64,000 nucleotides of DNA, taken from Patescibacteria group bacterium. Its GTDB lineage: Bacteria; Patescibacteriota; Patescibacteriia; 2-12-FULL-60-25. Where the stretch lies: NCBI GenBank assembly GCA_029210915.1, contig JARGGJ010000004.1, positions 15,327 through 79,326 on the forward strand, read 5' to 3'. The notes beneath the pieces are model-generated. The model saw nothing but the letters and a program-made list of their open reading frames with translations, had not been told where the DNA came from and ran no database searches. A program made the position numbers and the translations under genes. How positions within the stretch are numbered: position 1 is the first letter of the stretch; every line of letters begins with the position of its first letter. Below are positions 18,896 through 35,087 of this stretch, piece by piece.

Positions 18896-21800
18896 TTATT
18901 CTGATTTTTCTGTTTTTTCTGATTCTAATGCTTCGGGTTTTACGTTGTCGATTTCTTCGGGGTCGTAATCGCCATCTTCAGTGTCCGCGTCTTCTTCATC
19001 ATCTTCTTCTTGAAGCTCTGGGAAAAGTTCCGGGTGATGGTAGGAGAAGCCGGTTCCGGCTGGGACTAAGCGACCGATGATAACGTTTTCTTTTAAGCCT
19101 TCGAGCAAGTCGACTTTGCCGGTTATGGCAGCGTGTATTAGCACGCGAGCAGTCTCTTGGAAGGATGCGGATGAAAGGAAGGATTCGGTTGTGAGCGCGA
19201 CTTTGGTAATACCCATGAAGAGTTCTTCGAGAACTGCCGGTTCGCCGCCGGTTTCCACGACTTTGCGATTAACATCCTCGGAACGAGCGCGTTCAACGAT
19301 TTCGCCCGGTAAAAGCTCGGTATTGCCGGAATCGCGTACGTAGGCGCGCGAGAACATTTGGCGAATGATAACCTCTATATGTTTGGAGTTGATGCGTTGG
19401 CCTTGGGTTGCGTAGATAGAGAGAATCTCGCGGAGAACATAGTTCATAACTGCAGGGCGGCCCTTTGTTTTGTAAAGGAGGTGCAAATCCCAGTGACCCT
19501 CGGTGAGCACATCACCGGCCTGCACTTCATCGCCGTCTTTAACGAGAATCTTAAAGCCAACCGGAGTTTGATACTCGTGAGCGGATTTACCTTCCCAAAC
19601 AATAAATATCTTGCGTTTGTCGAGGCGTACCGTACCTGTGTGCTCGGATACAATCTCTGTACCATCTTTGCGTACAATAATTACCTGGCCTTCTGTTACT
19701 TTGCCGCCATCTTCCACTTTAACTTCATCCTTAGCGGTAACTACAAATGCATCTTCACGCATTTCATCGGCAAGGATGCGGATAATTTTACCTGTTCTAG
19801 CTTGGTCTACAATACGTTGACCGCCAATGACTTGGATTTCGTGAGCTTCGGGTTCCGCAATTTCAATTTTACCGGAAACCTCGGCCATAACAGCTTTGTG
19901 TTTAGGGATGCGGGCCTCTACCAATTCTTCAACACGAGGAAGACCTTGGGTAATATCAACACCTGTTGCAACACCACCGGTGTGGAAGGTGCGCATGGTA
20001 AGCTGAGTACCAGGTTCACCAATGGATTGAGCGGCAACAACACCAACAGCGGCTCCAAGGTTTACGTGTTCGTTATATGCCAAGTCGTAACCATAACATC
20101 TGGCGCAAAGACCGCGGGCATTACGGCATTTCATAACGGAGCGCACATGAGCTTCGGCAAGCGGTTTCTCTGCGGCTTTCAAGATTTGAATGTGTTCATC
20201 TGTAATAAGTGTATCTTTGGCGACAATCACTTTCTTGGTATCCGGGTGTTTGATTTCTTTTACGGTGTAACGACCCAAAATACGGGTTAGCAAGCCTTCA
20301 CCGATTTCTTCACACTCTTCGTGTGTTAAGAGGTGGCCATCATCATCTCCACAGTCTTCGCAGGTGATAATAACATCCTGGGCTACATCTACAAGACGGC
20401 GGGTTAAGTGGCCGGCGTTGGCGGTTTTAAGAGCCGTATCGGTTAAACCTTTTCTGGTACCGTGGGATGAGATGAAATATTCCAAAACGTCCAAGCCTTG
20501 GCGGAAAGAGGATTTGATGGGAAGCTCGATAATACCACCGGAAGGGTTGGTAACGAGGCCTTTCATACCCACAACTTGCATCAGCTGAACAATGGAACCG
20601 CGGGCGCCGGAATCAATCATAGCCGCAACGGATCCCTCTTTATTAAGTGCCGATTTGGAAAGATTTTTAATGCGATCCTGAATGTCAGACCAAACTTTAA
20701 TAATTTGAGTATAACGTTCGCGTTTGGTGAGTAAACCATCTCTGTATTGTTCTTCGATAATCTTAACGCGGCCGGCGGCTTCTTCCATAATATCATCCTT
20801 TTCCACGATGGTTGGAAGGTCACCGACACCGTAAGAGAAACCGGATTTGGTAATATATTTGTAACCCAGCGCTTTGATTCTATCCAAAAGTTGAGCGGTT
20901 ACCTCAAAACCAAATTGATCGATCGAGCTTTGCGTGATTTCGGCAAGTTGTTTTTTGCCAAGCAAGTCGTTTTTAAACGGCATACCTTCGGGCAAGATTC
21001 GATTAAACAAGACACGACCAACGGTAGTCTCTGTAGGTTTTTCACCGGGGTTTAAGCGAACATTGATTTTTTCACGAATTGGCAGATAACCGGCTTGATA
21101 TGCGTAGACAGCCTCGTCTGTAGATGCGAAGTTACGTGTTTTATCACCCTCGGGTTCAAACATCGAGGTCATGTAATAGACTCCCCAAACAATATCTTGA
21201 GATGGAGTTGTAACAGGGGTTCCGGTGGCCGGTTTAAGCAAGTTCTTGGTAGACAACATTATATCGCGAGCCTCGGTGCGTGCTTCTTCGGTTAACGGGA
21301 CGTGAACAGCCATTTGATCTCCATCGAAGTCGGCGTTAAAAGCGGAACAGACCAATGGATGAATTTGGATGGATTTGCCCTCGATAAGAACCGGTTGGAA
21401 ACCTTGGATGCCCAAGCGGTGAAGAGTTGGAGCACGGTTTAGAAGAACGACAGCATCACGCGCTATGTTTTCCAGAATATCCCAAACCTCGGGATTATCG
21501 GATTCGATAAACCTGTTGGCACTGCGGATATTGTGAACGATCTCTTGTTTGATGAGCTGGGAAATGATGAATGGACGGAACAGCTCGAGAGCCATGGTTT
21601 TAGGCAATCCGCATTGATGCATTTTTAGATATGGACCAACAACGATAACGGAACGGCCGGAATAGTCTACGCGTTTACCAAGTAGGTTTTGGCGGAAACG
21701 GCCTTGCTTTCCTTTTAAGCCATCAGCTAAAGATTTTAGCTGGCGTTTTTTACCCGTTGAGGCTAATACGGTTTTTGAATGGCGAGCGCTGTTATCAATA

Positions 21801-22921
21801 AGTGCGTCTACAGCTTCTTGAAGCATGCGTTTTTCGTTTCTGGTAATAACCTCTGGGGCATGAAGTTCGATTAGACGCTTTAAGCGATTGTTGCGATTGA
21901 TAACACGGCGATATAAATCGTTTAAATCGGAGGTGGCAAACCGGCCTCCATCCAAAGCAACCATCGGGCGCATATCCGGAGGAGTGACAGGCACAACTTT
22001 CAGTACCATCCAATTTGGTTCAATTTTTTGTTGATTGAATGATTTTAAGAGTTTTAGACGGCGAATGAGATGCTCGTATTTTGCACCGCCGGCTTTTAAC
22101 AACTCTTCTTCCAAGACAGCAACCGTAGCGTCTACATCAATCTTTTTTAAGAGTTCATCCAAAGCCTCGGCTCCGATTTTGGCTTCAAAAATATGACCGA
22201 ATTTTAGCGCGTACTCGTGGTATTCGTTCTCGGAAAGAATCTTAAGCGGTTGAAGAGTTTTTAATTCTTTCTCGGCTTCGCTGTTATCTTCGTCGAGTTC
22301 GGTGAGCTTGCGTTCTTTATCGCCATGAGCACGATCGAGTTCTTTGGTTTTTTCGGCCTCTTTCATGTCGGCCTTTTCATTTATACGCTGAACATTGCGC
22401 TCGTACTCGGATTCGATTTGTTTGCGTTTGCCTTTATACTCTGTACGCAATTGCTCGATAACTTGCTCACGAAGCTCGTCATCGACTTCGGTGACTATGA
22501 AGGATGCAAAGTAAACAACCTTTTCCAGATTCATAACCGAGAGGTCGAGCACGGTACCGATGCGCGATGGAACACCGCGCAAAAACCAGATATGTGTAAC
22601 CGGCGCGGCAAGCTCAATGTGACCCATGCGTTCGCGGCGAACAAGTGAGTGAGTTACCTCCACTCCGCATTTGTCGCAGATGATTCCTTTGTAGCGAATC
22701 TTCTTATATTTTCCGCAATAACATTCCCAATCTTTTGATGGGCCAAAAATCTCTTCGGCAAATAAGCCGCTTTTCTCGGGTTTTTGTGTGCGGTAGTTGA
22801 TTGTCTCAGGCTTTGTTACCTCGCCGTAAGACCAGTCGCGGATTGTTTCGGGCGAAGCAAGCTTGAGCCTAATGCCGTTAAAATCCGTGGTTTTGACGTT
22901 TTCTGTTTGAAAAAATGACAT
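18896..22921 (-). CDS. rpoC: DNA-directed RNA polymerase subunit beta-prime
   Basis: 1341 aa with the catalytic [14 protein letters not shown] motif and a poly-acidic C-terminal tail. Immediately downstream of rpoB. Confidence 0.97.
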
Positions 22922-22930
22922 AAGCGAGGA

Positions 22931-25900
22931 TTAAGATTTAGGAGATACTTCATTATTAGATTCCCAGGTGAACTCTTCCGTTGCCGAGGCTGTTTGTTTG
23001 ATTACCGCGGGTTTTGTTTCTTCCAGACGTTTTCCGTTCTTTAACAGTTCAACCTCCAAACACAAACCTTTAAGCTCGCGCATAAGAACGTTGAATGATT
23101 CTGGAACGTTGACTTTGGAAATCGGCTCGCCTTTGATGATAGCCTCGTAAGCTTTAGAACGGCCAACAACATCATCAGATTTGATGGTAAGAATTTCTTG
23201 CAAAGTATGAGCAGCGCCGTAAGCTTCCAAAGACCAAACTTCCATTTCTCCAAAACGCTGACCACCTGATTGAGCCTTACCTCCCAATGGTTGTTGAGTG
23301 ATAAGTGAGTAAGGGCCAATGGAGCGTTGGTGAATTTTATCTTCTACCATGTGAACCAGTTTCAAAATGTAGTTGTAGCCAACTGTTGGCGCGTGTTCGT
23401 AAGATTCACCGGTTCGGCCATCAAATAATTTAATCTTTCCGTCCTCGGGATAGTTGCCTTTGGCTAATTCTTCGTGAATTGTTTGTTCGGAGATACCATC
23501 AAAAACCGGAGTGGCTACATTATATCCACCGGCATTAGCCGCGAGACCCATATGCGTTTCCAAAATCTGACCCAAGTTCATACGAGAAACAACGCCAAGC
23601 GGGGAAAGAATGATATCGACCGGTGTTCCGTCTTCCAAGAAAGGAAGATCCTCTACGGGAACGATGCGGGATATAACACCCTTGTTACCGTGGCGGCCGG
23701 CGAGTTTATCGCCAACTTGGATTTTGCGAAGGTCGGCTACGGCTATAACGATGCGTTTTAATACACCGGGTTGAAGCTTATCGCCGTTTTCGCGTGTGAA
23801 GGTTGTGATGCCTACAATTTTACCGCGAGCACCGTGCTGAAGGTAAAGCGATGTATCGCGGACATCGCGGGCTTTTTCTCCAAAGATGGCACGCAGAAGT
23901 TTTTCTTCGGCGGATAAATCGGTCTCGCCTTTTGGTGTGATTTTACCAACTAAAATATCACCGGATTTTACTTCGGCACCAATACGGATTACACCGTTTT
24001 CATCCAGATTTTTGAGTTTTTCCTCGGATACATTTGGGATATCGTTGGTAACAACTTCGGGGCCAAGCTTGGTATCGCGGACATCCATGGCGAAGTGCTC
24101 GATATGCACAGAGGTGAAACGATCTTGATGAACCAAGCGTTCGGAAAGGATAATAGCATCTTCAAAGTTGTAGCCGTCCCAACAGAGATATGTGCAAAGC
24201 AAGTTTTGACCGAGAGCGAGTTCCCCGTTTTGGCAGGATGCTCCGTCAACTAAAACTTCGCCGGCATAAACTTTTTGATCTTTATCTACACGAACATGTT
24301 GGTTTAAACAGGTTGATTGGTTGGAGCGTTGGAATTTGATTAGCTCGTAGCGATGTATCTCGCCACGTTCCGTTGTTATTTCCACATGATTCGCGGCAAG
24401 TGATGTGATAGTGCCATCATCCGGAGCCAAGATGGCATGGCCGGAATCTACAGCCGCACGACGCTCTACACCCGTGCCGACAATCGGAGCATCGGGTTTG
24501 ATGCATGGCACAGCCTGGCGTTGCATGTTGGAACCCATAAGCGCGCGCTGGCCATCATCGTGCTCAACGAAAGGAATGAGGGAAGTTGATATTGATAGAA
24601 TTTGTTTTGAGGAAACATCCAGGTAATCTATTTCGTGAACATCGACAACCGTAGGCTCGCCGTTTTTACGAGCAGGTGTACGGTCTACCAAAAAGTTTCC
24701 TTGTCTATCGATTGGGGTTGTGGCCGGGGCCGTTGTTCCACGCTCTTCGGTGAAGGCGTTTAAGTAAACAATTTCACCTGTAACTTTTGGAATCAAAGGA
24801 ATTTGAGTGAGTGGAAGATCGGTGAGTTTTTTGGCGATTTCTTTGGTTACTTCATTGCCGGCTTTGGCAATGGATTTTCCGGAACCGTCGTTAACATCTA
24901 CACGCAAGATTCCACCAACAGCATCTTTGCCGTCGTTTTGCGCCCAGTTCTTGACCTTGCGATATGGAGTCTCGATAAATCCATACTCGTTGATACGAGC
25001 ATAGCTACTCATGTGGCCAACAAGACCGATGCTTGGGCCTTCGGGAGATTGAATGGGGCAAATACGGCCATAGTGAGTGCGGTGCACATCGCGGACTTCG
25101 AAACCGGCACGCTCGCGGGTTAAACCTCCGGGGCCTGTGGCTGATAAACGACGTTTATGCTCGAGCTCTGAAAGCGGATTGGTTTGATCCATGAACTGCG
25201 AGAGTTGGGATGACATGAAGAACTCGCGCACAGCGGCAATAACCGGGCGGGCGTTGATAAGCCTGCCGGGAGTCAGCACGCTAATATCCTGGGTGCTCAT
25301 GCGATCTTTGATGATGCGCTCCATGCGAGCCAAACCAATGCGGAAACGGCCTTTGATAAGCTCACCAATGGCGCGGACACGGCGATTACCCAAGTGGTCG
25401 ACATCATCCGGTTCTTCTTGAGTATTGTTTAATCTGATTATTTCTTTAAGAATGGCTACCAAATCTTCTTTGGAAAGGATACGGTTCTCTTCGGCAAAAA
25501 CCATTTCATGATCCCAAGGCATGCCAAAGCGTTGATTGAATTTATAACGACCAACCGGACCCAAGTCATAACGCTCGAACTTGAAGAACATGGAGTGAAT
25601 AAGCGACTTGGCGTTATCGGCAGTGGCGAGATCACCCGGGCGTATGCGTTTGTAGACTTCGATATAACCTTCGTCTTCGGTTTTGGCGGAATCTTTGGCC
25701 AGAGTTGATTCGATGTATTTGTTCATCGGGTGAATATCAACATCTTCGAAGGCTTTCAAAATATCCTCATCTTCCGTTAAACCAAAAGTTCTAAGCAGTG
25801 AAGTTGCGGCCACTTTGCGTTTGCGGTCGATTTTGACGTAAATGACATGATTGGAATCGGTCTCAAACTCAAGCCAGGCACCGCGGTCGGGAATAACTTT

Positions 25901-26386
25901 AGCGCCATAGTAACGGCGGCCGCGCGCGCTTTCGGCGGTAAAGAATGCACCGGCGGAACGGACCAGCTGAGAAATAACAACACGCTCGACACCATTGATA
26001 ACAAAAGTACCGCGGTCTGTCATGACGGGAAGATCGCCTAAATATATTTCTTGTTCTTTGGATTCACCGGAACGCTTGTTGACCAAACGAGTTTTTACGC
26101 GAAGAGGAGCCTCGTAAGTGATGCTCTTTTTCTTTGATGTCTTCTCGTCAAACTTTGGTTCGTCTAAAAAATAATCAACGAATGAAAGTTCGAGATCACG
26201 GCCAATAAAATCTCGGACCGGGGAAATCTCGTGAAACAGATCTTTGATACCTGTTTCGATGAACCAGCGATAGCTTTGCTTTTGAACCTCGATTAAATCG
26301 GGTAAAGCCATGGCATCGCGTGATGCGGTAAAATAACGACGCTCGCGATCTTTTACATCTTGGCGTCTGAAAACCATTTTACTCAT
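22931..26386 (-). CDS. rpoB: DNA-directed RNA polymerase subunit beta
   Basis: 1151 aa with conserved blocks throughout (GDKLAGRHGNKGVISRI, GGQRFGEMEVWSLEAYGAAHTLQE). Confidence 0.97.
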   Translation of the reverse strand: MSKMVFRRQDVKDRERRYFTASRDAMALPDLIEVQKQSYRWFIETGIKDLFHEISPVRDFIGRDLELSFVDYFLDEPKFDEKTSKKKSITYEAPLRVKTRLVNKRSGESKEQEIYLGDLPVMTDRGTFVINGVERVVISQLVRSAGAFFTAESARGRRYYGAKVIPDRGAWLEFETDSNHVIYVKIDRKRKVAATSLLRTFGLTEDEDILKAFEDVDIHPMNKYIESTLAKDSAKTEDEGYIEVYKRIRPGDLATADNAKSLIHSMFFKFERYDLGPVGRYKFNQRFGMPWDHEMVFAEENRILSKEDLVAILKEIIRLNNTQEEPDDVDHLGNRRVRAIGELIKGRFRIGLARMERIIKDRMSTQDISVLTPGRLINARPVIAAVREFFMSSQLSQFMDQTNPLSELEHKRRLSATGPGGLTRERAGFEVRDVHRTHYGRICPIQSPEGPSIGLVGHMSSYARINEYGFIETPYRKVKNWAQNDGKDAVGGILRVDVNDGSGKSIAKAGNEVTKEIAKKLTDLPLTQIPLIPKVTGEIVYLNAFTEERGTTAPATTPIDRQGNFLVDRTPARKNGEPTVVDVHEIDYLDVSSKQILSISTSLIPFVEHDDGQRALMGSNMQRQAVPCIKPDAPIVGTGVERRAAVDSGHAILAPDDGTITSLAANHVEITTERGEIHRYELIKFQRSNQSTCLNQHVRVDKDQKVYAGEVLVDGASCQNGELALGQNLLCTYLCWDGYNFEDAIILSERLVHQDRFTSVHIEHFAMDVRDTKLGPEVVTNDIPNVSEEKLKNLDENGVIRIGAEVKSGDILVGKITPKGETDLSAEEKLLRAIFGEKARDVRDTSLYLQHGARGKIVGITTFTRENGDKLQPGVLKRIVIAVADLRKIQVGDKLAGRHGNKGVISRIVPVEDLPFLEDGTPVDIILSPLGVVSRMNLGQILETHMGLAANAGGYNVATPVFDGISEQTIHEELAKGNYPEDGKIKLFDGRTGESYEHAPTVGYNYILKLVHMVEDKIHQRSIGPYSLITQQPLGGKAQSGGQRFGEMEVWSLEAYGAAHTLQEILTIKSDDVVGRSKAYEAIIKGEPISKVNVPESFNVLMRELKGLCLEVELLKNGKRLEETKPAVIKQTASATEEFTWESNNEVSPKS

Positions 26387-26497
26387 GGTGTGACGTGTTT
26401 AATCCCGAGAAAAGCCTTAGCCGGACCAGAACTGCAGACATAAGAGCGGAGAGTCTGGCGACAGTAAGAATTTAAAGCGGGTTTTTTAGATAAGAAA

Positions 26498-26527
26498 CAA
26501 AAAGCCTCCGAAAGTTCGGGGTTTTTG
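26498..26527 (-). terminator. Stem-loop flanked by A and T runs inside the rpoB leader (possible attenuator or insulator)
   Basis: Minus-strand reading aaaaaCCCCGAActTTCGGAGGcttttt, about 115-140 nt upstream of the rpoB ATG. Confidence 0.4.
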
Positions 26528-26649
26528 GATGGGTTTATTTTTAGACAGAAGTGATATGCATGAAATAATGTTGACTCCCTATTTTGGAGAGTTTTTTGCC
26601 GCTTAATGCAGCAGATAATTTTTCTGTCAAATTTTTGTTTACTCGCGCG

Positions 26650-26678
26650 ATTATCACATTATTGAGCTTAGTTGTCAA
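26650..26678 (-). promoter_or_regulatory. Candidate rpoBC promoter (TTGACA-17 nt-GATAAT on the minus strand)
   Basis: The plus strand shows tgtcaa at 26673-26678 and attatc at 26650-26655. This implies a leader of about 255 nt before the rpoB ATG. Confidence 0.45.
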
Positions 26679-26774
26679 GCTTTCTGTGGATGAATCTTAT
26701 AATCATCTTTTGTAAACCTTGGCAATATTTGATACTTTTTAAGTTAACTCAGCAAAAAACAATAATAGAGCCAC

Positions 26775-26804
26775 TTGACATATCCCCAAATTCCTGCTTA
26801 AATA
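26775..26804 (+). promoter_or_regulatory. Promoter P1 for ORF246
   Basis: TTGACA (26775-26780), 17-18 nt spacer, TAAATA. The ATG lies 58 nt downstream with a GGAGG SD. Confidence 0.6.
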
Positions 26805-26861
26805 AATAATCTTGCTTTTTATCTGGCAAAAAAACGTTCATTACAAGAATCGGAGGCGGTT

Positions 26862-27602
26862 ATGCTTCAAACCTATCTACAAAAAAGAAGGGCGGTTGCG
26901 GAACTTTTGCACTGCGCTGAAAGATTGGCAAAGTGCATCGAGTGCAGACAAGTGGATGACCACTTGTTGGATATTGCGTGGAATCTCCTTCACAGACACG
27001 CCAAGTCACGCAGACTTTTGAAGGAATTCAACGCTCTTTTGCCGGAGGCACTGGAAAAAGCACCTCGCACATCCAAAGGTTACCGCCTCTGCGATGAGCA
27101 GGTGGAGCACCTTGCCCAGGCCAAGCAAACGTTTGAACTGCGGGCATACGCCTTAAGCGTTGAACTGGCGGAACTGGCGGAAAGCCGGCTAAAACGCGAT
27201 CTTGAAGCCCTGAACGAGTGGTGGAAGCACTGCTCCGCCGAAGAACGAGACATCGCTTTTTCGGCGATTGCTTCGGCAACAGGTGCCAACAAGCCGGCAC
27301 GATTGCTCTCGGCGGCAAAGGGCGAGAAGCGCATCATGCTTTTGGCTCTAGGCATGGAGGCTGTCGAGCTTGTCTACAAGCAAGCTCGAGTGCAAGCCGC
27401 GAAATGGAAAGCTTTGAATGACAAAGACCAAAGAAAGGTCATGAAAAGCATCCATACGCACACCGGAATGGATCCGAATGAATGGTGGAGCCGAGCCACC
27501 ATCATTGAAAGGACAAAGGTTTTGAAAGAGCTTCTAGGCGTTCTGGAAGATGCGGAAGAGGCAAAAAAAGCTCTGAAAAAGAGCAAAACCGGTACCGCCT
27601 AA
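26862..27602 (+). CDS. Orphan hypothetical protein ORF246 (mostly helical, no recognisable motif)
   Basis: 246 aa. SD GGAGG 5 nt before the ATG, own TTGACA promoter at 26775 and terminator at 27608. Higher G+C than the neighbours by eye. Confidence 0.65.
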   Translation: MLQTYLQKRRAVAELLHCAERLAKCIECRQVDDHLLDIAWNLLHRHAKSRRLLKEFNALLPEALEKAPRTSKGYRLCDEQVEHLAQAKQTFELRAYALSVELAELAESRLKRDLEALNEWWKHCSAEERDIAFSAIASATGANKPARLLSAAKGEKRIMLLALGMEAVELVYKQARVQAAKWKALNDKDQRKVMKSIHTHTGMDPNEWWSRATIIERTKVLKELLGVLEDAEEAKKALKKSKTGTA

Positions 27603-27607
27603 CCTTG

Positions 27608-27636
27608 ACCCGACTGTAAAGTCGGGTTTTCTTTTT
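27608..27636 (+). terminator. Intrinsic terminator after ORF246
   Basis: ACCCGACT-gtaa-AGTCGGGT followed by tttcttttt. Confidence 0.8.
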
Positions 27637-27725
27637 ATCTATTTTTAGCCTAATTTTGTAAATTTGGCTTAACTAAGGCAATATTTTTTTGGCTAAGTTC
27701 AGCTTAAAAAACATGCCAAGCACTC

Positions 27726-27754
27726 TTGACAAAATGCTCTTTTTGTGGTATAGT
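27726..27754 (+). promoter_or_regulatory. Promoter P2 driving the structured RNA region
   Basis: TTGACA (27726-27731), 17-nt spacer, TATAGT (27749-27754). This is the best promoter match in the window. Confidence 0.65.
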
Positions 27755-27760
27755 TATTTG

Positions 27761-28190
27761 TTCATTAAATGAGATACCGCCAATAATCATCTCGAAAGAT
27801 ATAGAGGAGGAAGGCAACTCTTGCAGATACCCAAACATGGGAATTCTGCGGAACGAGTAAGAACCTATGAAAATCCGGTTTCGACTGGAATTCCATAGTA
27901 GTACTGCTCACAGATATTCAGCGCTTCGGTGTTATGGATATCCGCCGTCTCCGCATTTACTTGCGGAGCCCTCTAGATCCTTCCAGATGATATTAAACAA
28001 TAATGTCTCGAAAGACGTGGGGGAGAGAGATTCTCTCTGTGGGCGGGCGTTTTAACGTCATGTACCACAGGTGCTCCATAGACCTTAATGCAGTTTGGTT
28101 TTAGGACTGAACTAACATTTTGATGCTATGGTGCGGATTTACCGGTATTTTTAATACCAGGTAATCCCCTCCGCATCTATCGAGATATTT
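27761..28190 (+). ncRNA. Candidate novel structured RNA of about 430 nt (free ncRNA, or a very long leader of the 61-aa ORF)
   Basis: No ORF with an RBS. Many helices: GGAATTC/GAATTCC (27840/27888), UUCG-loop hairpin (27921-27934), CTCCGCA/TGCGGAG (27949/27962), GCTCCATAG/CTATGGTGC (28071/28126), nested TGCGGA..ACCGGTA..TACCAGGT..TCCGCA (28131-28175). An internal duplicated module CAATAAT-NTCT-CGAA-AGAN-G-rich occurs at 27781 and 27998, with a compensatory A:U to G:C change. Confidence 0.5.
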
Positions 28191-28327
28191 TGATACCTAA
28201 ATTACAAATAATAAATAATAAATAATAAAGATTGTGTCACTTTGTGAATTTAATTATACTATCTATGTAATGTGATACTAATTGGTTATTGTTAATTGAT
28301 TATTGATTATTGATTATTTCAAGTTTT

Positions 28328-28513
28328 ATGCCCAAGCAAAAGAGTCATGAGGTTATGCCTCAAAAATCTGATGAGATAGTGATAACTATCAACCCTTTTG
28401 ATATCGAAAAACGTGTCAGAAAACCTTTACCGCCTCCATCGCGGTTTCATAAGGACAAATCAAAATATTCTAGAAAACAAAAACATGGGCAGGATTTTGG
28501 AAAAAATGAATAA
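28328..28513 (+). CDS. Small basic hypothetical protein (61 aa)
   Basis: MPKQKSHEVMPQKSDEIVITINPFDIEKRVRKPLPPPSRFHKDKSKYSRKQKH. It lies between the structured RNA region and the terminator at 28576. No SD. The track start at 28310 is inside a ggttattg repeat. Coding status is uncertain. Confidence 0.35.
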   Translation: MPKQKSHEVMPQKSDEIVITINPFDIEKRVRKPLPPPSRFHKDKSKYSRKQKHGQDFGKNE

Positions 28514-28575
28514 GTGGAAGGATGTTAGAAAAATGGCTTAAATAAAGCTTTTATTCTACGATCTTTACACCAAAT

Positions 28576-28602
28576 AAAAATCGGGCATTTTGCCCGATTT
28601 TT
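28576..28602. terminator. Bidirectional intrinsic terminator
   Basis: aaaaa-TCGGGCA-ttt-TGCCCGA-ttttt. It closes the P2 unit. Confidence 0.8.
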
Positions 28603-28627
28603 ATGTTTACAAAAAGCGGGCAGAGGC

Positions 28628-28656
28628 TTGACAATTACCCTGTTTTTTGCTAAGGT
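28628..28656 (+). promoter_or_regulatory. Promoter P3 for ORF526
   Basis: TTGACA (28628-28633), 17-nt spacer, TAAGGT. Confidence 0.6.
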
Positions 28657-28662
28657 TTCAAA

Positions 28663-28939
28663 TCTTCGAAATGGAAATCTTCATGGAGGGGAAAGCGATT
28701 AGCTTTTGTTTACATGACTCCGGCCGGCGCTGGACTCTATGTACACATGGGCACCCTTGGCTCGCATTATGCAAATGCAAAAACGTGAGTCGCCTCCATA
28801 AAGATTTCCGATTCCGGGAATTACATGATGGTAATTAGCATCATGTCAAAACACTCCTCTCCGGCTTACAACCAAAGAGGATAAAACTTAAACCGAACCT
28901 TACATTTTTTCTCAAGAAGTTTGTGAAAGGAAAAAGATC
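28663..28939 (+). promoter_or_regulatory. Structured 5-prime leader of ORF526 of about 275 nt (candidate cis-regulatory RNA)
   Basis: Long-range closing helix GGAAATCTTCATGGAGG (28674-28690) with CCTCCATAAAGATTTCC (28793-28809), enclosing about 100 nt with sub-hairpins. Then CATGATG-gtaattag-CATCATG (28825-28846) and CCTCT...AGAGG (28856-28880). Confidence 0.45.
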
Positions 28940-30520
28940 ATGAGCGAAAATAAAGAAGAACAGATCATCGATCTCCACCTCCGATTCAACACAGTGATCT
29001 CAGTCCCCAAAAAAGCAGTTGCGATGGGCTCCGAACGGTATGCAAAATTCGCGTTGCGCAATGTTGAGGCAACCGTGCGGGTGAGTGTGCCCAAATGGGC
29101 GTTGGACTCGGGAGATATCAAGGTTCCCAAGGAAAGAAAGGGGATTTTGGGATCGTTCGAGATTCTGATGAACGCGTCTCTGCCCGACGAGACCCTTGCA
29201 TTTGAGCTAACGCGTGAAGATTACGCGAGGCTGGATTTGCTGAAGGTGGAGTTCGACAGAGATTCCGTGCCGGGGATGGTGCTCGTTAAGATCGAGTTGC
29301 CATTGCCGGCAGCAATTGTTGAGAAGCAGATCAATGCGTCCAGAAAATACATGGGTACGGATTGTTCTCAATCGGCTGGCTGTGTTGTGGTGAACAACGT
29401 GGCAGGGGTGAAACCGCCGCACCAGGGTACGGGTCGAGGACGGTACCGAGGCAAGAACGTTGGAAACAGCCAACCGTTGAATCATGAGTTGAATACGATC
29501 AATGGTTACTGGTTCGACTACTGGGTGAACCGTCCGGAAGACCCGGAGGAGGCGGCGCCCGGAACGGTGGTGAAGTACACTGACACGTACTTCTGGCCTG
29601 CGGAGTGCAAGCTGTGTGTTCAGGTAAGCGACGAGATGCTCGCTGATCCCAAGGATCTGGTGATGGAAGAGCGAGGTCAGCTCACGCACAAGCACACGGC
29701 GCTTATGGGAGCGCACGCCAACTTGCTGCGAACCATTGCAGATGGATATTTCCGGATCTATATGGTGCCGGAGATCGTTCCGTTTGTCGTTGGCAAAGGC
29801 CAAAGGAACTTCTTCACACACAAGTTCCCAGAATTGGTCGCCGCGCTGGACAACAATAAAGTCTCGGCAATGCTGCAAGGCTCGGGGCATTTTCAGCCCC
29901 GAGACGAGGTAGCATATGACTTTTACTGTTGTAATGGGGCGAACGATCCGAACTCCGGTTCGGTGTTCATGACCTCGGCGTGCTTTGGGCGCACTCAACC
30001 CATTTACCACATGCAGTGGAAGGATGGGCGCAGGCAACCGGTGATTCGGGATGGAGAGAAAGTACTCAACAATCAAGTTGGGCACTTGGTCATTCTCTCC
30101 GACCTGACAGCTCATCAGCTGGAAGGAGCTGTGTTCGAAGCCATGGTCGATGGCACCATGGACAGGTTCTACGAGAAACACGGTTTGCTCTTTCCGGATG
30201 AAGCATTTGCAGGTGATGATTTTGTGGCGGCACAGAGCCACAAGAAAGCAAATCGCGAAGCCAAACAGGGCGACGGCAATGGTGTTCGGGAGAGCTCGAA
30301 GAAGAGCGTCAAGCCCGATCCCGAGCCCGAGCCTGAGCCTGAACCGAAGCCTGTTCAGTTTGGGAGCTTCGATGATGTGCTCCCTCCCCTGCCCGAAGAA
30401 TCCGAACCCGAGGAGTCAGAAGATGATCCGGGTGAAGAATCCGATGGGGAGGATGAGCAGGAAAACGAGAAAACTCAAGACGACGACACCGGTGACGAAC
30501 CCTCGGACTTCCCGGTCTGA
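28940..30520 (+). CDS. Orphan hypothetical protein ORF526 with a PEPEPEPEP linker and poly-acidic C-terminal tail
   Basis: 526 aa. AAGGA RBS, own TTGACA promoter 280 nt upstream, terminator at 30548 and a TGA stop. G+C is high enough to open a 344-aa antisense shadow ORF. No catalytic or DNA-binding motif recognised. Confidence 0.75.
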   Translation: MSENKEEQIIDLHLRFNTVISVPKKAVAMGSERYAKFALRNVEATVRVSVPKWALDSGDIKVPKERKGILGSFEILMNASLPDETLAFELTREDYARLDLLKVEFDRDSVPGMVLVKIELPLPAAIVEKQINASRKYMGTDCSQSAGCVVVNNVAGVKPPHQGTGRGRYRGKNVGNSQPLNHELNTINGYWFDYWVNRPEDPEEAAPGTVVKYTDTYFWPAECKLCVQVSDEMLADPKDLVMEERGQLTHKHTALMGAHANLLRTIADGYFRIYMVPEIVPFVVGKGQRNFFTHKFPELVAALDNNKVSAMLQGSGHFQPRDEVAYDFYCCNGANDPNSGSVFMTSACFGRTQPIYHMQWKDGRRQPVIRDGEKVLNNQVGHLVILSDLTAHQLEGAVFEAMVDGTMDRFYEKHGLLFPDEAFAGDDFVAAQSHKKANREAKQGDGNGVRESSKKSVKPDPEPEPEPEPKPVQFGSFDDVLPPLPEESEPEESEDDPGEESDGEDEQENEKTQDDDTGDEPSDFPV

Positions 30521-30547
30521 GATATGAACCTTACTTAACTTGTTAGT

Positions 30548-30575
30548 GCGGCTGTAAGTTACAGCCGCCTTTTTC
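30548..30575 (+). terminator. Intrinsic terminator after ORF526
   Basis: GCGGCTGT-aagtt-ACAGCCGC followed by cttttt. Confidence 0.8.
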
Positions 30576-30626
30576 TCTCGTGCATTTGAATTCAAGTGCC
30601 CGGGAGCTGAAAGCTTTCATAGTTTG

Positions 30627-30655
30627 TTGACAGAAAGTGTTGCATTTAATAGCAT
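30627..30655 (+). promoter_or_regulatory. Promoter P4
   Basis: TTGACA (30627-30632), 17-nt spacer, TAGCAT. Confidence 0.5.
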
Positions 30656-30661
30656 AAAAAA

Positions 30662-30826
30662 ACAATGCGGTTTGCAAGTTGCGAAACGAAGCGCGACCGG
30701 TAAAGAAATTCATGGTTACTCAATTTATTGAGTTCTCTCTCCTCCTATGAAATTCCATACCATCTTTGCGGCAACGTTTCGCAGCTTACAGACCACATAA
30801 AAAAACACCCTTTACCGGGTGTTTTT
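30662..30826 (+). ncRNA. Candidate small RNA of about 160 nt
   Basis: Lies between P4 and the terminator at 30801-30826. Long-range helix TTGCGAAACG (about 30690) with CGTTTCGCAG (about 30775), inner CTCAAT-tt-ATTGAG hairpin and an exposed CU-rich stretch TCTCTCTCCTCCT. Only a 12-codon ORF without an RBS. Confidence 0.4.
30801..30826. terminator. Bidirectional terminator shared by the P4 unit and the rodZ-like gene
   Basis: aaaaa-ACACCC-tttacc-GGGTGT-ttttt. It abuts the stop of the 30825-31592 gene. Confidence 0.75.
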
Positions 30827-31592
30827 AGTTTATGGTTGAGGTGGCGAAAGATTCGGTTGTGGTAGAGTAATCCTGAAAATAGCGGATGGTTTCATTAGGT
30901 GGAGCCGGCCCTTGAATGGGGGCATATGTGATGTATCTGGTTAATTTTGACTCCAATCCATAACGTCGTTTGGCAATGATATCCAATTTGGTTAAACCCC
31001 GCGGAATATCCATGTTTAATGCAAATGAGCCATCTTCTTCCACAACTGCAAAAATACCATTAACAACTACCGAGGCCGTGGGATCGGTTTTTCCTTGGAT
31101 TATTATGCGCGGGCCGGTGATTTGTTCGTTATCTGCCGGCGAGGTTACAGTGAGTGATGGGGACTCGCGAAAAATTTTTGCCTCGTTCCAAACGTAATAC
31201 CCCAATAAAAAAAATATCGGAATAATTATTAAAAAAGGTAAATATTTTGTTGGAGTAAAAAATTCACTGCGTTTTATCTTATGCGTGAACGAATAATTTT
31301 TTGTAGTGTTTCTTATTTCAAAACCATCGCGAACCAAGGCGGCTCTGTACTTTCCAAGGATAAACGGGATTCTGCCATCCAATGCCTTGGTTAGCGCGCG
31401 AACATGCCTCTCGGAGTAATAGGGATCGTTTAATGAGGAGAAATTCTCGCTTTCTAAAGCTTCAATAATATATTCAGAGATACCTGATATTTTTGATAAT
31501 TCTTTTACTGTCCAGCCTCGGAGCTCGCGAAGTTCTTTTAAATCTATTCCAAAACTCTGATCTGTTCCGATACTTTTTTTTATAAAACCCAT
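30825..31592 (-). CDS. RodZ-like HTH (XRE-type) membrane protein
   Basis: 255 aa. N-terminal HTH (LRELRGWTVKELSKISGISEYIIEALE), central TM helix (YLPFLIIIPIFFLLGYYVW) and an extracytoplasmic beta-rich domain. Confidence 0.75.
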   Translation of the reverse strand: MGFIKKSIGTDQSFGIDLKELRELRGWTVKELSKISGISEYIIEALESENFSSLNDPYYSERHVRALTKALDGRIPFILGKYRAALVRDGFEIRNTTKNYSFTHKIKRSEFFTPTKYLPFLIIIPIFFLLGYYVWNEAKIFRESPSLTVTSPADNEQITGPRIIIQGKTDPTASVVVNGIFAVVEEDGSFALNMDIPRGLTKLDIIAKRRYGLESKLTRYITYAPIQGPAPPNETIRYFQDYSTTTESFATSTIN

Positions 31593-31598
31593 AATACC

Positions 31599-33941
31599 TT
31601 AATACCTCCTTTCAGTCTCCTCGTCAACCTCATCATCTTCGTCACTCTCCTCCTCCTCTTCCTCGTCAGTATCTTCGTAATCATTATCCGGATTATTATT
31701 ATTATCTTCTTCTTCCTCTTCTTCTTCGATTTCATCTTCCTCAACTTCTTCCGCTTCATACTCGTCCGCCGGGTCATTAGCGTTTGTAAAATCCGCTTTG
31801 AGGATTTCGCGAGGTTTAGCGCCATCGGCAGGGCCTATAAAACCTTCTTCTTCCAAAAGATCAAGGATGCGCGCAGCGCGAGCATAACCAACCTTAAGGC
31901 GCCTTTGGAGCAATGATGCACTGGCTTTACCGGCGCGGATTATTTCTTCTTTTGCTTCATGAAGCAAAGCATCACCACCCTCACCGCCACCGCCTCCTGA
32001 TGAAAATATTGATTTAGATCTATCATGCTCTACAACTTCGGGGTCGTAATCCGCGGGTTCGTATTTGGATTTTAGATATTCAACTACGCGATTAATCTCG
32101 TCATCCGCCAGATAAACACCCTGAATACGTCGAGGTGATGAAAGCTCGGCAGTGGAGTAAAGCATATCGCCCCGGCCAATGAGTTTCTCGGCGCCGGATT
32201 GGTCGATGATGGTGCGCGAATCCATGAGTGATGCAACGGAGAAAGCGATACGCGCCGGGATGTTGGCTTTAATAAGACCGGTGATAACATCTACCGATGG
32301 GCGCTGGGTCGCAAGAATAAGGTGGATACCAACCGCACGCGACATTTGCGCCAAGCGGACAATTTGTGACTCAACCTCTTGCTTGGAGTTGACCATTAGA
32401 TCGGCGAGCTCATCGACTATCATTACAATATAAGGAAGTTTTTCTTTACACCTGGCATTGTAAGTGGCTATATCACGGCACTGCATTTTGGAAAGCATGT
32501 CGAAGCGCTTGTTCATCTCCCTAACCGCCCATTTCATGGAGTTTATTGTTTTGTCGACATCTGTAATAACCGGAGTGATGAGATGCGGTATGCCGTTGTA
32601 TATTGGGAATTCAACACGTTTCGGATCGACTAATATCAATTTGAGATCATCCGGGCCATTGGAGTAAAGAAGCGACATAATGATGCTGTTTAAACACACC
32701 GATTTACCGGAACCGGTTGCGCCGGCAACAAGCAAGTGAGGCATACGGCATACATCGGCATGCCAGGGTTTACCGGTTACATCACGTCCCAAAGAAAAAG
32801 TGAGTTGGCTTTTGCGGTCGCGCCATTCTTTGGTTTCGAAAAGCTCGCGCAGGCCAACAATGGCAACGCTTTGGTTGGGAACTTCGACGCCTACCATGGA
32901 TTTGCCCGGGATTGGAGCTTCGATACGAATTGGGTGAGCAGCGAGCGCCATAGCCAAATCGTTGTGTAGTGCCGTAATTTTGTTTAGCTTGATTCCTTCG
33001 GCGGGTTTGAATGTAAATTGGGTTACAGTTGGGCCAACAGCGACCTCACCCATTTCGACAGGGATTCCAAAAGTTTCGAGTGTGCGTTGAATTAAGAGTT
33101 GACGGCTTTCGATATCACCCGAAGTTGGTTTTTGATCGTGAGTTGTTAGAAGCTCGAAAGGAATATCTATCTTGGGCCTGCGACGGCGGGGTTTTGGCTC
33201 TTTAACCTTTTTGGGTTTGGGAATGCCGGTTTCATTTTCCTCCTCTTCGATTTCTTCTTCGTCGGCTTCCTCCTCCTCTTCATCTTCTTCTTCATCCTCT
33301 TCGGTTTCAGTATCATCTATTTCGTTATTATTTGATGATTTTTTAAACTTACGATTTTTTAATGAAGTTGCGATGGCTACCAAAGGTTTAAAGATGATAG
33401 AGAAAATGCGAAGTACAAAATTGACTACACTCATTAACCAATCGCCAATAGTTGACAATGATGTGTTAAAGATTAAAACCAAAGAGGCGCCAAATATGGC
33501 GGCAAAAAATATTATTGCGCCGGCTACTCCAAAAAGCGGAATAAACGGTTCCGCTAAAATCATTCCCAGTTTACCGGCCGCGGCATCGATGGCTGTTGCT
33601 GTGGCTTTTGAATCTTTGAAAGTTAAAAGATGGATAAGCGGATTAAAACCAATGAAAAACAGTAAAAAACCAATGCCGTTTGATAGCTTTAAAGGTAAAC
33701 GAGACGGTGAGTACAGAAAGATACCGACAGTAAAAATAAAGAATGGCAACACTATTTTATCCCAGCCAAAAACGTGCGCCATGGCAGAATCCAAACCTGT
33801 TCCGACCGCGCCGGCTAAATCAAAAAGGGATAAAAGCAAAAAGATTGCAACGGCAAATAAAATGACAGTCACAATTCCTTTTTGTGTTTGCGCATCTAAA
33901 TTCAGACGAAAGCCATAGCTTTTTTTTCGGCGTCTTCCCAT
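31599..33941 (-). CDS. ftsK: DNA translocase FtsK/SpoIIIE
   Basis: 780 aa. N-terminal TM helices, poly-acidic linker, Walker A VAGATGSGKS, Walker B IVMIVDELADL, gamma domain LLQRRLKVGYARAARILDLLEEEG, plus an acidic tail. Confidence 0.95.
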   Translation of the reverse strand: MGRRRKKSYGFRLNLDAQTQKGIVTVILFAVAIFLLLSLFDLAGAVGTGLDSAMAHVFGWDKIVLPFFIFTVGIFLYSPSRLPLKLSNGIGFLLFFIGFNPLIHLLTFKDSKATATAIDAAAGKLGMILAEPFIPLFGVAGAIIFFAAIFGASLVLIFNTSLSTIGDWLMSVVNFVLRIFSIIFKPLVAIATSLKNRKFKKSSNNNEIDDTETEEDEEEDEEEEEADEEEIEEEENETGIPKPKKVKEPKPRRRRPKIDIPFELLTTHDQKPTSGDIESRQLLIQRTLETFGIPVEMGEVAVGPTVTQFTFKPAEGIKLNKITALHNDLAMALAAHPIRIEAPIPGKSMVGVEVPNQSVAIVGLRELFETKEWRDRKSQLTFSLGRDVTGKPWHADVCRMPHLLVAGATGSGKSVCLNSIIMSLLYSNGPDDLKLILVDPKRVEFPIYNGIPHLITPVITDVDKTINSMKWAVREMNKRFDMLSKMQCRDIATYNARCKEKLPYIVMIVDELADLMVNSKQEVESQIVRLAQMSRAVGIHLILATQRPSVDVITGLIKANIPARIAFSVASLMDSRTIIDQSGAEKLIGRGDMLYSTAELSSPRRIQGVYLADDEINRVVEYLKSKYEPADYDPEVVEHDRSKSIFSSGGGGGEGGDALLHEAKEEIIRAGKASASLLQRRLKVGYARAARILDLLEEEGFIGPADGAKPREILKADFTNANDPADEYEAEEVEEDEIEEEEEEEDNNNNPDNDYEDTDEEEEEESDEDDEVDEETERRY

Positions 33942-33998
33942 GGTTAAGGCTTATTTTACTTTAAAAATACAAAATAGTCTAACTGAATAAAAACGTTA

Positions 33999-35087
33999 CT
34001 ACCCTTGCTCATCCGCAATATCATCGTCTTTAGGATCTTCCGCTTTGCCTTTAGTATCGGATGCCAAATCAATTCCCTCTTTTACGCGCCATGACTCAAC
34101 TATTTCTGCGCGAATTGTTTTCATTATTTCCGGTTCTTGCCTAAGCGCGGCTTTGGCGTTTTCACGGCCTACGCCGAGCTTGGTATCTTTATATGAATAA
34201 CTGTTGCCGGCTTTTTTGATTGCATTCCATTCAACGCCAAGATCCAAGAGATCGCCGGCGATGGAGATGCCTTCGTTATACATTATATCAAACTCACAAG
34301 TACGGAACGGGGCGGCCATCTTGTTTTTAACAATCTTGGTTTTAACACGATTGCCAATGATGCGATCGCCCATTTTGATTTGGGCGCTGCGGCGAACCTC
34401 GATGCGAACCGATGAGTAGAATTTGAGAGCCATACCGCCGGTAGTAGTTTCCGGGTTGCCAAACATGACGCCGATTTTTTGACGAAGCTGGTTGATGAAA
34501 ATTACCGAGGTTTTAGTACGTGAGACAATGGCTGTGAGTTTGCGAAGAGCTTGACTCATGAGGCGGGCTTGGAGACCCATGTGGGAATCGCCCATTTCGC
34601 CTTCGATTTCCGCTTTTGGAGTTAGTGCCGCGACAGAGTCGATGACTATTACGTCGACAGCGTTGGAGCGTACGAGTGTTTCCACAATATCCAATGCTTG
34701 CTCTCCGGTATCGGGCTGGGAGATAAGCATGTCGTTAATGTTGACTCCGATTTTTTTGGCGTAATCCGGATCCAGTGCGTGCTCTGCGTCTACAAAAGCG
34801 GCGAGACCGCCCATTTTTTGCACTTCGGCAATGATATGCTGGGCAAGTGTGGTTTTACCTGATGCCTCGGGTCCGTAGACCTCGATAATGCGGCCGCGCG
34901 GTACGCCCATGACACCGAGTGCGAGATCGAGTGACAGACAACCGGTTGGAACCGTGTCTACCTGCATTTTTTTAGCCTCGCCAAGGCGCATAATTGCACC
35001 CTCGCCAAAGCGTTCTTTAATTTGATCAATAGCTTCTTGAGCGGCCACCATACGAGCGCCGGCCTCATCTACAACTTTTTTAGCCAT
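33999..35087 (-). CDS. recA: Recombinase RecA
   Basis: 362 aa. [18 protein letters not shown] and the L1/L2 regions ([23 protein letters not shown]). Confidence 0.97.

Follow-up and report, generated by a model that had tools for sequence, protein, structure and literature searches.

Several noncoding RNAs of bacteria, e.g., OLE, ROOL, GOLLD and the raiA motif RNA, are long, intricate and restricted to particular lineages; their structures are backed by covariation, they have promoters of their own, and their function is not deducible from sequence (OLE is accompanied by OapA, OapB and OapC). The Patescibacteria (Candidate Phyla Radiation, CPR) make up a large share of bacterial diversity and have tiny genomes, the lineage-specific content of which is mostly unexplained. 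The locus described here belongs to a metagenome-assembled genome of this group (its nearest relatives bear the name Candidatus Uhrbacteria) and lies upstream of rpoB in a stretch of 64,000 nucleotides from contig JARGGJ010000004.1 (the window, to which all coordinates refer). As a first-pass annotation of the bare letters had noted, a plus-strand block is placed here between the minus-strand genes rpoC-rpoB (18896-26386) and rodZ-like/ftsK/recA (30825-35087). It comprises three open reading frames (ORFs), ORF246, ORF61 and ORF526, and three structured RNAs, U2 (with two tandem homologous modules), U3 and U4. Judged from its sequence and that of its orthologs, the locus is vertically inherited, is centred on RNA and has four strong, conserved promoters, and its three RNA families, each with its own near-consensus sigma-70-type promoter, appear to be interrelated. 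We read the segment as an ancestral Uhrbacteria locus with an RNA core that works as an RNA-centred regulatory or ribonucleoprotein (RNP) unit, a reading to which we give about even weight. Because the families of U2, U3 and U4 are apparently undescribed and the predicted fold of ORF526 is unmatched in the libraries searched, the locus appears to be categorically new at the level of its parts.

Inheritance of the rpoB-rodZ interval

The block had first been taken for a compositionally atypical insert, i.e., an accessory element, but its counterpart, with the parts arranged and oriented alike, is found between rpoB and rodZ in many Candidatus Uhrbacteria representatives and in metagenome contigs, so that its proteins have homologs at the same position across relatives, although without an assigned housekeeping role. 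A Joint Genome Institute (JGI) contig shows the identical order (rpoC, rpoB / ORF246, a 61-aa ORF, a 575-aa ORF / rodZ-like, ftsK), aligns to the whole 4.4-kb interval and carries the only close database homolog of ORF526. In most of the 80 species-representative loci that were fetched by the N-terminus of RpoB, recA-ftsK-rodZ are located 3.5-8 kb upstream of rpoB in divergent orientation, which makes the gap between the two gene blocks ancestral. Wherever parts of the cassette are detectable, they occur in the same order and on the same strand between rpoB and rodZ (parts missing in the most distant loci may reflect limited sensitivity, not loss). In loci with an RpoB identity of 93-98%, that of ORF526 is only 33-53% and that of the RNAs 73-94%, and this combination of a conserved RpoB with a divergent ORF526 marks the cassette proteins as fast-evolving residents and not as newcomers. 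A degenerate pattern of the U2 module yielded 25 matches in the JGI metagenome collection, 14 of which were confirmed and 11 rejected by a hidden Markov model (HMM); every confirmed module with visible context was found beside rpoB, ORF61 or rodZ, the others being on five short contigs without an identifiable flank.

This synteny across the lineage is the first point against a horizontally acquired accessory island upstream of rpoB, perhaps RNA-guided or directed against phages, which would agree with the orphan, fast-evolving proteins, with the modular series of promoters, RNAs and proteins, and with a G+C content at third codon positions (GC3) that in ORF526 and ORF246 is the highest of the neighbourhood. 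As to composition, the earlier claim stands for ORF526, which has both the highest GC (0.541) and the highest GC3 (0.634) of the 38 large ORFs of the window, but less so for ORF246, the GC3 of which (0.567) is only about 1.6 standard deviations above the mean (0.442, standard deviation 0.077); two other ORFs come near ORF526 with 0.600 and 0.610. Moreover, the excess is common to the orthologs of ORF526, with GC3 values of 0.64-0.85 in ten genomes, clearly above those of their own rpoB (0.39-0.57) in nine of the ten, the remaining one being the GC-rich L012, in which the two are about equal (0.85 vs 0.84). A high GC3 that is common to the orthologs is an old trait and no sign of recent transfer.

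The search for traces of mobility likewise speaks against an island. ARAGORN detected no tRNA or tmRNA, and the absence of a recombinase and of credible flanking repeats was confirmed (only short, imperfect chance repeats inside rpoB and ftsK were found); no integrase, transposase or recombinase was recognized in ORF246, ORF61, ORF526 or their homologs with Pfam, PHROG and NCBIfam profiles. The segment had no match among IMG/VR viral contigs, GenBank phages or plasmids, and the module pattern was absent from viral contigs. A likeness to RNA-guided systems, suggested at first from the layout, was not borne out: Pfam, PADLOC and the fold search gave no nuclease, reverse transcriptase or defence signature, there is neither a repeat-spacer array nor a variable guide-like segment, and the variable parts of U2, U3 and U4 are covarying helices, not free guide-like ends. 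We thus regard an acquired island as extremely unlikely. The "host-type repeats" that had been cited as a sign of older residence proved, at 28198-28306, to be AT-rich simple repeats in a non-conserved spacer.

Structured RNAs and their transcription signals

The modular layout proposed initially, i.e., separate promoter-to-terminator units, several of them for RNA and not for protein, with orphan proteins in the others, is borne out by conservation and covariation. All four TTGACA boxes with 17-nt spacers are present (starts at 26775, 27726, 28628 and 30627), and the -10 boxes that follow after 17 nt are, in this order, TTAAAT, TATAGT, TAAGGT (with a TG extension) and TAGCAT. The four -35 boxes are unchanged in the orthologous loci wherever the aligned segment reaches the promoter. 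Terminators consisting of a hairpin and a T-run were verified at 27607, 30548 and 30801, and a perfect 14-bp palindrome at 28574-28604. The statement that two of the four units lack a convincing ORF holds for U4 but not for unit 2, which contains a genuine 61-aa gene (28328-28513).

U2 (27761-28195, plus strand; supported by minimum free energy (MFE) folding, RNAalifold and HMM) is predicted to be transcribed from a promoter at 27726-27754, in which TTGACA, a 17-nt spacer and a TG-extended TATAGT match 11 of the 12 consensus positions and which is unchanged in 10 orthologs. Its two domains, the 5' module at about 27786-27991 and the 3' module at about 28002-28189 (predicted ends), are mutually homologous, as seen from a direct repeat and from an iterated nhmmer search; such a search could in principle drift, but the matches are all co-located and co-oriented upstream of rpoB. 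Each module is closed by a long helix, P1, which holds the purine tract GGAGGAG (near-invariant as GGAGGAG(R)n) facing CCCCUCU, and further contains the CCGGUUUCGACUGG hairpin, an AGUAC junction and a UUCG-capped hairpin. In the 5' module the CCGGUUUCGACUGG hairpin is invariant, with a T-loop-like UUCGA, and the 3' module has an altered counterpart, UUUGGUUUUAGGACUGA. The MFE z-score of U2 is -6.7. RNAalifold analysis of 10 orthologs gave 124 pairs, 42 of them compensatory, whereas column shuffles yielded 18.2 +/- 2.7 and slid controls 5-20; an alignment of 64 modules shows covariation at 20 of the 24 pairs that make up P1 and the T-loop hairpin. For U2 as for the RNAs below, alignments are MAFFT- or HMM-based and the sequences are mutually related, so the shuffle controls are not to be read as probabilities.

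An HMM identified modules of about 180-200 nt, in one to four tandem copies upstream of rpoB, for 58 of 83 sources, and they are present in 38 of the 47 loci for which at least 9 kb upstream of rpoB is available. Up to four copies are spread across 3 kb; in distant loci they are interleaved with ORFs, and the spacing can reach hundreds of nucleotides. Identity of U2 across nine full-length orthologs is 73-94%. In most orthologs a T-run follows the P1 helix of the last module, which is why U2 might end there as a stand-alone RNA; in the window, no strong terminator is seen between the modules and ORF61, the two being separated by an AT-rich, non-conserved spacer with simple repeats (28196-28327, plus strand). 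The U2 ortholog of L001 has a hairpin-forming insertion of 115 nt in the linker between the modules (L001:8975-9100), and L010 has a shorter one in the same place.

U3 (28663-28818, plus strand; from covariation) is a branched hairpin that probably forms the 5' part of the ORF526 transcript. Its promoter at 28628-28656 (TTGACA, 17 nt, TG-extended TAAGGT) is unchanged in 9 orthologs. In the predicted fold, a long helix (CAUGGAGG.../...CCUCCAU) closes off two inner hairpins, of which one reads UCCGG-loop-CUGGA, and the whole makes a three-way junction. Compensatory changes were found in 19 of 57 pairs (shuffles, 9.6 +/- 1.8; slid controls, 2-10), one of the six helices counted (7 pairs, none compensatory) overlapping the promoter and probably not being real. 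The family was detected in 44 sources, and in 25 of the 47 loci with a long upstream part that were used above for the modules, with identities of 71-85% in the U3 region among orthologs. Wherever an ORF526-family gene is found, U3 lies directly upstream of it. A 63-aa ORF inside U3 was rejected as a gene, because the lengths of its indels are not divisible by three and its helices vary by compensatory changes. The consensus of U3 has in common with that of the module a GGAGG purine start, the UCCGG-loop-CUGGA hairpin and a CCUCYAYAU closing strand, and this comparison of consensus sequences makes a common ancestry probable, U3 being a paralog of the U2 module that has diverged.

U4 (30662-30800, plus strand; from MFE and covariation) is a small RNA of about 140 nt without an ORF, predicted to fold into a rod-like hairpin that encloses an inner one. 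Its promoter (30627-30655; TTGACA, 17 nt, TAGCAT) is kept in 10 of 12 orthologs, the two others, L012 and L023, being those in which the aligned segment begins downstream of the -35 box; its terminator (30801-30826, plus strand) is common to the convergent rodZ-like gene. U4 has an MFE z-score of -9.5, and 28 of its 49 pairs are compensatory (11.9 +/- 2.2 in shuffles, 8-13 in slid controls). It was identified in 38 sources, each time beside the 3' end of rodZ, and in 27 of the same 47 loci; identities among orthologs are 72-83%. The stems drift, but an unpaired, near-invariant pyrimidine tract, UCUCUCUCCUCC, stays exposed in a one-sided region beside the apical hairpin. The tract is retained as UCUCUCCUC in 37 of the 38 sources, and GGAGGAG... 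is present in nearly all modules. The U4 tract UCUCUCCUCC is complementary to GGAGGAGAGA of the modules over 10-12 bp, and the strongest duplex predicted for U4 in the 64-kb window is that with the 3' module of U2 (-28.6 kcal/mol, compared to a background minimum of -23.9). Directly upstream of the U4 promoter, the palindrome GCATTTGAATTCAAGTGC (30579-30600), which is kept in L001, is a candidate regulator-binding site.

None of the 4,227 families of Rfam 15 matched U2, U3 or U4 at gathering level in the window or in 7 loci, and at E<=10 (cassette) and E<=1 (three distant loci) only terminator-driven noise was obtained; no tRNA gene and no Rfam family was found anywhere in the window. Literature searches on Uhrbacteria noncoding RNA, on structured RNA of Patescibacteria and on DUF7230 returned nothing relevant. 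Divergent housekeeping RNAs that Rfam misses (U4 or U3 as 6S RNA, a regulator that binds the RNA polymerase holoenzyme, or U2 as an unusual RNase P RNA, tmRNA or signal recognition particle (SRP) RNA) would nevertheless fit the strong, constitutive-type promoters, the lineage-wide conservation and the single fixed locus beside rpoBC. 6S RNAs are notoriously hard to detect by sequence, and the long hairpin of U4 is irregular and asymmetrically unpaired in one region, but its predicted fold does not show the two-sided central bubble of 6S RNA flanked by a terminal helix, and U3 is predicted to form a three-way junction. U2 was tried as RNase P RNA and tmRNA and rejected, as there is no Rfam or ARAGORN match and its tandem modules close on themselves and vary in number; with independently closed modules in one to four copies, no pairing of the 5' and 3' termini, no acceptor/CCA end and no tag ORF, it is incompatible with RNase P, tmRNA and SRP RNA. 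On the whole, we find a housekeeping RNA in disguise very unlikely.

The position of the RNAs upstream of genes has to be weighed differently, since it could mean that they act purely in cis. The U2 modules and U3 would then be riboswitch-like or protein-binding autoregulatory 5' untranslated regions, which would respond to a ligand or to the product of their own gene (e.g., ORF61) and thereby govern the following ORF, the tandem copies would give cooperativity, and U4 would be an unrelated small RNA or an orphaned leader. Lineage-specific structured leaders are common. U3 directly precedes the ORF526-family gene wherever it is detected, the modules precede ORF61 on the same strand in 22 sources (without a strong terminator between them in the window), and the interleaving of modules with ORFs in distant loci points the same way. 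Other features do not fit leaders so well: U4 is a unit without an ORF, set between a promoter and a terminator of its own, the T-run after P1 of the last module in most orthologs looks as if the RNA stopped there, up to four copies extend across 3 kb, and no expression platform with alternative pairing is visible. Furthermore, the RNAs are better conserved and more widespread than any downstream protein, and modules occur also where ORF61 is undetectable. Purely cis-acting leaders are in our view possible but doubtful.

Proteins, control regions and neighbouring genes

ORF61 (28328-28513, plus strand; supported by homologs and codon changes) encodes a small basic protein, the most widely conserved one of the locus. 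Its homologs, from 22 sources, are all encoded upstream of rpoB with modules upstream on the same strand; they have a conserved C-terminal motif, RKPLPPxSxxHKxKxKYxRKxKH, and compared to L001 there are 27 synonymous and 12 non-synonymous codon changes, as in a coding sequence. With DUF7230 (PF23876) the protein of the window scores 17.9 bits, below the gathering threshold of 27 bits, and 15 of 18 homologs are matched, at best with E 1.2e-4 and over a stretch of 16 residues only; phrog_2701 and phrog_18092, both of unknown function, are further weak matches. Because of its K-x-K-x-K-Y-x-R-K-x-K-H tail, ORF61 was considered as an ArfA-type ribosome rescue factor, but a profile of 18 homologs found no ArfA among PDB sequences or in Pfam at E<=10, and this candidate was dismissed.

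ORF246 (26862-27602, plus strand; hypothetical protein P1P90_01620 in the NCBI record) encodes an all-helical, lineage-restricted protein with two 'LN.WW....ER' motifs. Homologs are present at the corresponding position in 14 sources, and the pattern of substitutions over codon positions is that of a coding sequence; family and PDB-sequence searches detected no relatives outside the lineage. Its GGAGG Shine-Dalgarno site, which had been held to set it apart from the core genes, is present but not unique, as the adjacent rodZ-like gene has GGAGG too; a Shine-Dalgarno site is recognizable in about 5 of the 38 large genes of the window and is thus rare but not specific to the block.

ORF526 (28940-30520, plus strand; hypothetical protein P1P90_01630) encodes a fast-evolving, lineage-restricted protein, the nucleotide identity of which (about 65%) is below that of the non-coding stretches of the locus (77-94%). 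The family occurs in 17 sources, always at the rpoB-rodZ position. Word-indexed protein searches returned one homolog each for ORF526 and ORF246, and further ones came from the loci fetched with RpoB and, for ORF526, also from an exhaustive search of representative proteins, in which the core had only 11 relatives among 1.84 billion. Neither ORF246 nor ORF526 matches Pfam, NCBIfam, PHROGs or PADLOC, in accordance with the initial remark that no motif could be assigned, and no Pfam or PDB sequence match was obtained for ORF526; a Pfam scan of ten further ORFs, encoded in this interval in distant loci, was negative as well. The AlphaFold2 model of ORF526, based on an alignment of 12 sequences, reached a predicted local distance difference test (pLDDT) of 88 and a predicted template modelling (pTM) score of 0.81 (an alignment of 2 sequences gave a pLDDT of 38). 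In this model, residues 1-437 are predicted to form a folded core with an N-terminal beta domain, a C-terminal alpha/beta domain and a disordered basic loop at residues 163-175, followed by the PEPEPEPEP linker and long acidic tail that had been recognized from the start. The tail ends in a conserved EFGDFSD...PxDFPV tip, which recalls, as a likeness only, the protein-recruiting tips of SSB-type tails.

Foldseek found nothing at E<0.1 for this model in 350,542 PDB chains or in BFVD, with TM-scores of at most about 0.25 except for an alignment of about 80 residues with a viral protein (target-normalised TM 0.42). The modelled fold is thus without a neighbour in PDB and BFVD, two libraries outside of which the predicted cellular structures (AlphaFold DB) lie. 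One distant homolog differs in domain composition: in L012 (5810-7477, minus strand) a RecR-type zinc finger and Toprim_4 (41 bits, cut-off 25) replace the N-terminal beta domain, a fusion that gives a weak hint of a nucleic-acid-connected role for the family. The Toprim domain is absent from ORF526 itself and from homologs other than that of L012, and ORF526 is not a RecR/Toprim protein. The homolog of L048 (401-2437, minus strand) is a 678-aa ORF with an extra copy of the N-terminal beta domain. GC3 of the orthologs in L001, L003-L007, L010 and L048 is 0.64-0.75, that of rpoB in the same genomes 0.39-0.57. The stop codon of ORF526 is indeed TGA, which closes 3 of the 38 large ORFs of the window. 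The 344-aa antisense ORF results from base composition, as had been proposed, for shuffling of synonymous codons gives equal lengths, and it was discarded as a gene on this ground.

The ORF246 promoter (TTGACA at 26775, TTAAAT at 26798, plus strand; from sequence reading and promoter scan) belongs to a divergent control region at 26387-26861, delimited in the same way and by terminator scan, which also contains the rpoB leader and has identities of 69-83% in 10 related loci. On the minus strand, a near-consensus rpoB promoter at 26678-26650 would give a leader of about 260 nt, in which a hairpin and T-run at 26506-26521 may be an attenuator of rpoBC. A common motif, TTTTGTAAA(1-2 nt)TTGGC...GGCAATATTT, occurs at 26708-26730 and 27654-27686, 40-45 bp upstream of the -35 boxes of ORF246 and U2; the second copy is unchanged in L001 and L002, and GGCAATATTT is found 3 times in the window, with 0.29 expected. 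The motif may be a shared operator or UP element.

The ORF246 unit ends at a terminator at 27607-27636 (plus strand; from terminator scan), the stem of which covaries between the window, L001 and L002, and the U2-ORF61 unit at a bidirectional terminator hairpin (28574-28604), the 14-bp inverted repeat of which is kept in L001. The ORF526 terminator (30548-30578, plus strand; also from the terminator scan) has a stem that covaries with L001. The product of the rodZ-like neighbour (30825-31592, minus strand) has a helix-turn-helix domain (HTH_25), a domain similar to Glucodextranase_B and a transmembrane segment. The two convergent units have one hairpin in common, since the stop codon of the rodZ-like gene and the U4 terminator overlap. 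An 864-aa ORF at 35411-38005 (minus strand) has GC-rich, Cys-containing repeats of the GGTSGTGG type and gives rise to the second GC maximum of the window (0.55 at 36-37 kb).

Possible working of the locus and comparison with known systems

If the segment is such a regulatory or RNP unit centred on RNA, the transcripts of ORF61 and ORF526 would begin with the structured module array and with U3, respectively, as suggested by the location of these RNAs on the same strand as the genes and by the lack of a strong terminator between them in the window. The modules and U3 would each lock the near-invariant purine tract GGAGGAG[A/G]n into the closing helix, and U4, with the exact complement UCUCUCCUCC in an unpaired loop, would act on them in trans, either by helix invasion or by competition for a common binding protein. 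Either way, the neighbouring transcripts would be folded, processed or translated differently. The likeliest RNA-binding partner would be ORF61, a basic protein that is conserved more widely than the other two of the locus. Trans action is proposed because U4 exposes the complement and has its best duplex in the window on the 3' module of U2; whether by invasion of the closing helix or by competition for a common protein (ORF61 being the candidate), we think it rather unlikely. A wider proposal may be put forward tentatively and well short of even weight, namely an RNP system of an unknown kind, in which an ornate multi-module RNA (one to four tandem domains of about 180 nt, each with a T-loop hairpin), two paralogous small RNAs, a small basic protein and a protein with a new fold and an SSB-like acidic tail would serve a core role in the cells of this lineage of reduced genomes, e.g., the modulation of RNA polymerase or translation, with U4 switching the modules by strand invasion.

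Several points weigh against a regulatory or RNP unit of this kind. The ends of the RNAs, read-through from U2 into ORF61 and the accumulation of the RNAs are deduced throughout from motifs of promoters and terminators. The parts are not strictly co-inherited at the sensitivity used, as modules were found in 58 sources compared to 22 for ORF61, 44 for U3 and 38 for U4. No expression platform was found, neither an alternative terminator/antiterminator nor sequestration of a Shine-Dalgarno site, and most genes of the genome lack such a site. The complementarity of U4 and the modules may be inherited and not functional: the U4 tract resembles the 3' strand of the module P1, which would make the complementarity a relic of common descent, U4 perhaps being a module paralog minus the purine strand. 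Because the tracts of U4 and of the modules are both almost invariant, there is no inter-molecular covariation by which pairing in trans could be proven. Finally, the roles of ORF246 and ORF526 are left unaccounted for.

What can be said of the locus is that 4-8 kb beside the RNA polymerase genes are kept in most of the Uhrbacteria loci examined and that the best-conserved parts are RNAs of no described family. It is a solid lead on new RNA families, and not on a mobile or RNA-guided system. If it is a functional RNP or regulatory circuit, it would add new large structured RNA classes, which are rare and have historically been a source of new biochemistry, as well as a new protein fold, and would open a way to study regulation in organisms that so far do not grow in culture by themselves. 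With their predicted promoters and ends and their covarying helices, the RNAs are clearly delineated and are ready for structure probing, cryo-electron microscopy and metatranscriptome mapping.

Among known systems, the loci of Y RNA and Rsr (Ro60) are similar in that structured RNAs, one or several, with a T-loop-like hairpin accompany the gene of a protein of about 530 aa. ORF526, however, has no TROVE domain, vWA domain or HEAT-repeat ring, the YrlA and Y_RNA models are unmatched, and the T-loop-like hairpin of the locus does not belong to a tRNA-like domain beside the closing stem. U4 resembles 6S RNA as an irregular hairpin (about 140 nt) that is encoded near the RNA polymerase genes and has a promoter and a terminator to itself, but it has no Rfam 6S match and, in its predicted fold, no large two-sided central bubble closed by a terminal helix, its conserved element being a one-sided pyrimidine tract. 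The CsrB/RsmZ and Qrr families resemble the locus as paralogous RNAs with strong promoters and a strict short motif (here GGAGGAGG, with three overlapping GGA, and the complement CCUCC), and by analogy with such sponge RNAs a role in titration or competition is plausible. Unlike in CsrB/RsmZ with their repeated GGA motifs, the purine tracts are paired in a long covarying helix and not exposed in hairpin loops, the modules are complex and have many helices, and no CsrA-like protein was identified in the locus. Tandem glycine aptamers and ribosomal-protein leaders also have repeated structured domains 5' of a gene on the same strand, and ORF61 could feed back on its leader in the manner of the latter; the locus differs from them in that no known aptamer family was matched and no expression platform found, that one to four copies occur with wide spacing, and that the RNAs are more widespread than the protein. 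Nearest in style, along with such tandem leaders, are the ornate noncoding RNAs OLE, ROOL, GOLLD and raiA. Compared to the ornate RNAs, those of the locus are without a match in Rfam 15 and consist of a module of about 180 nt, repeated one to four times, together with two smaller apparent paralogs, and they are confined to Uhrbacteria, where they occupy one fixed site beside rpoBC.

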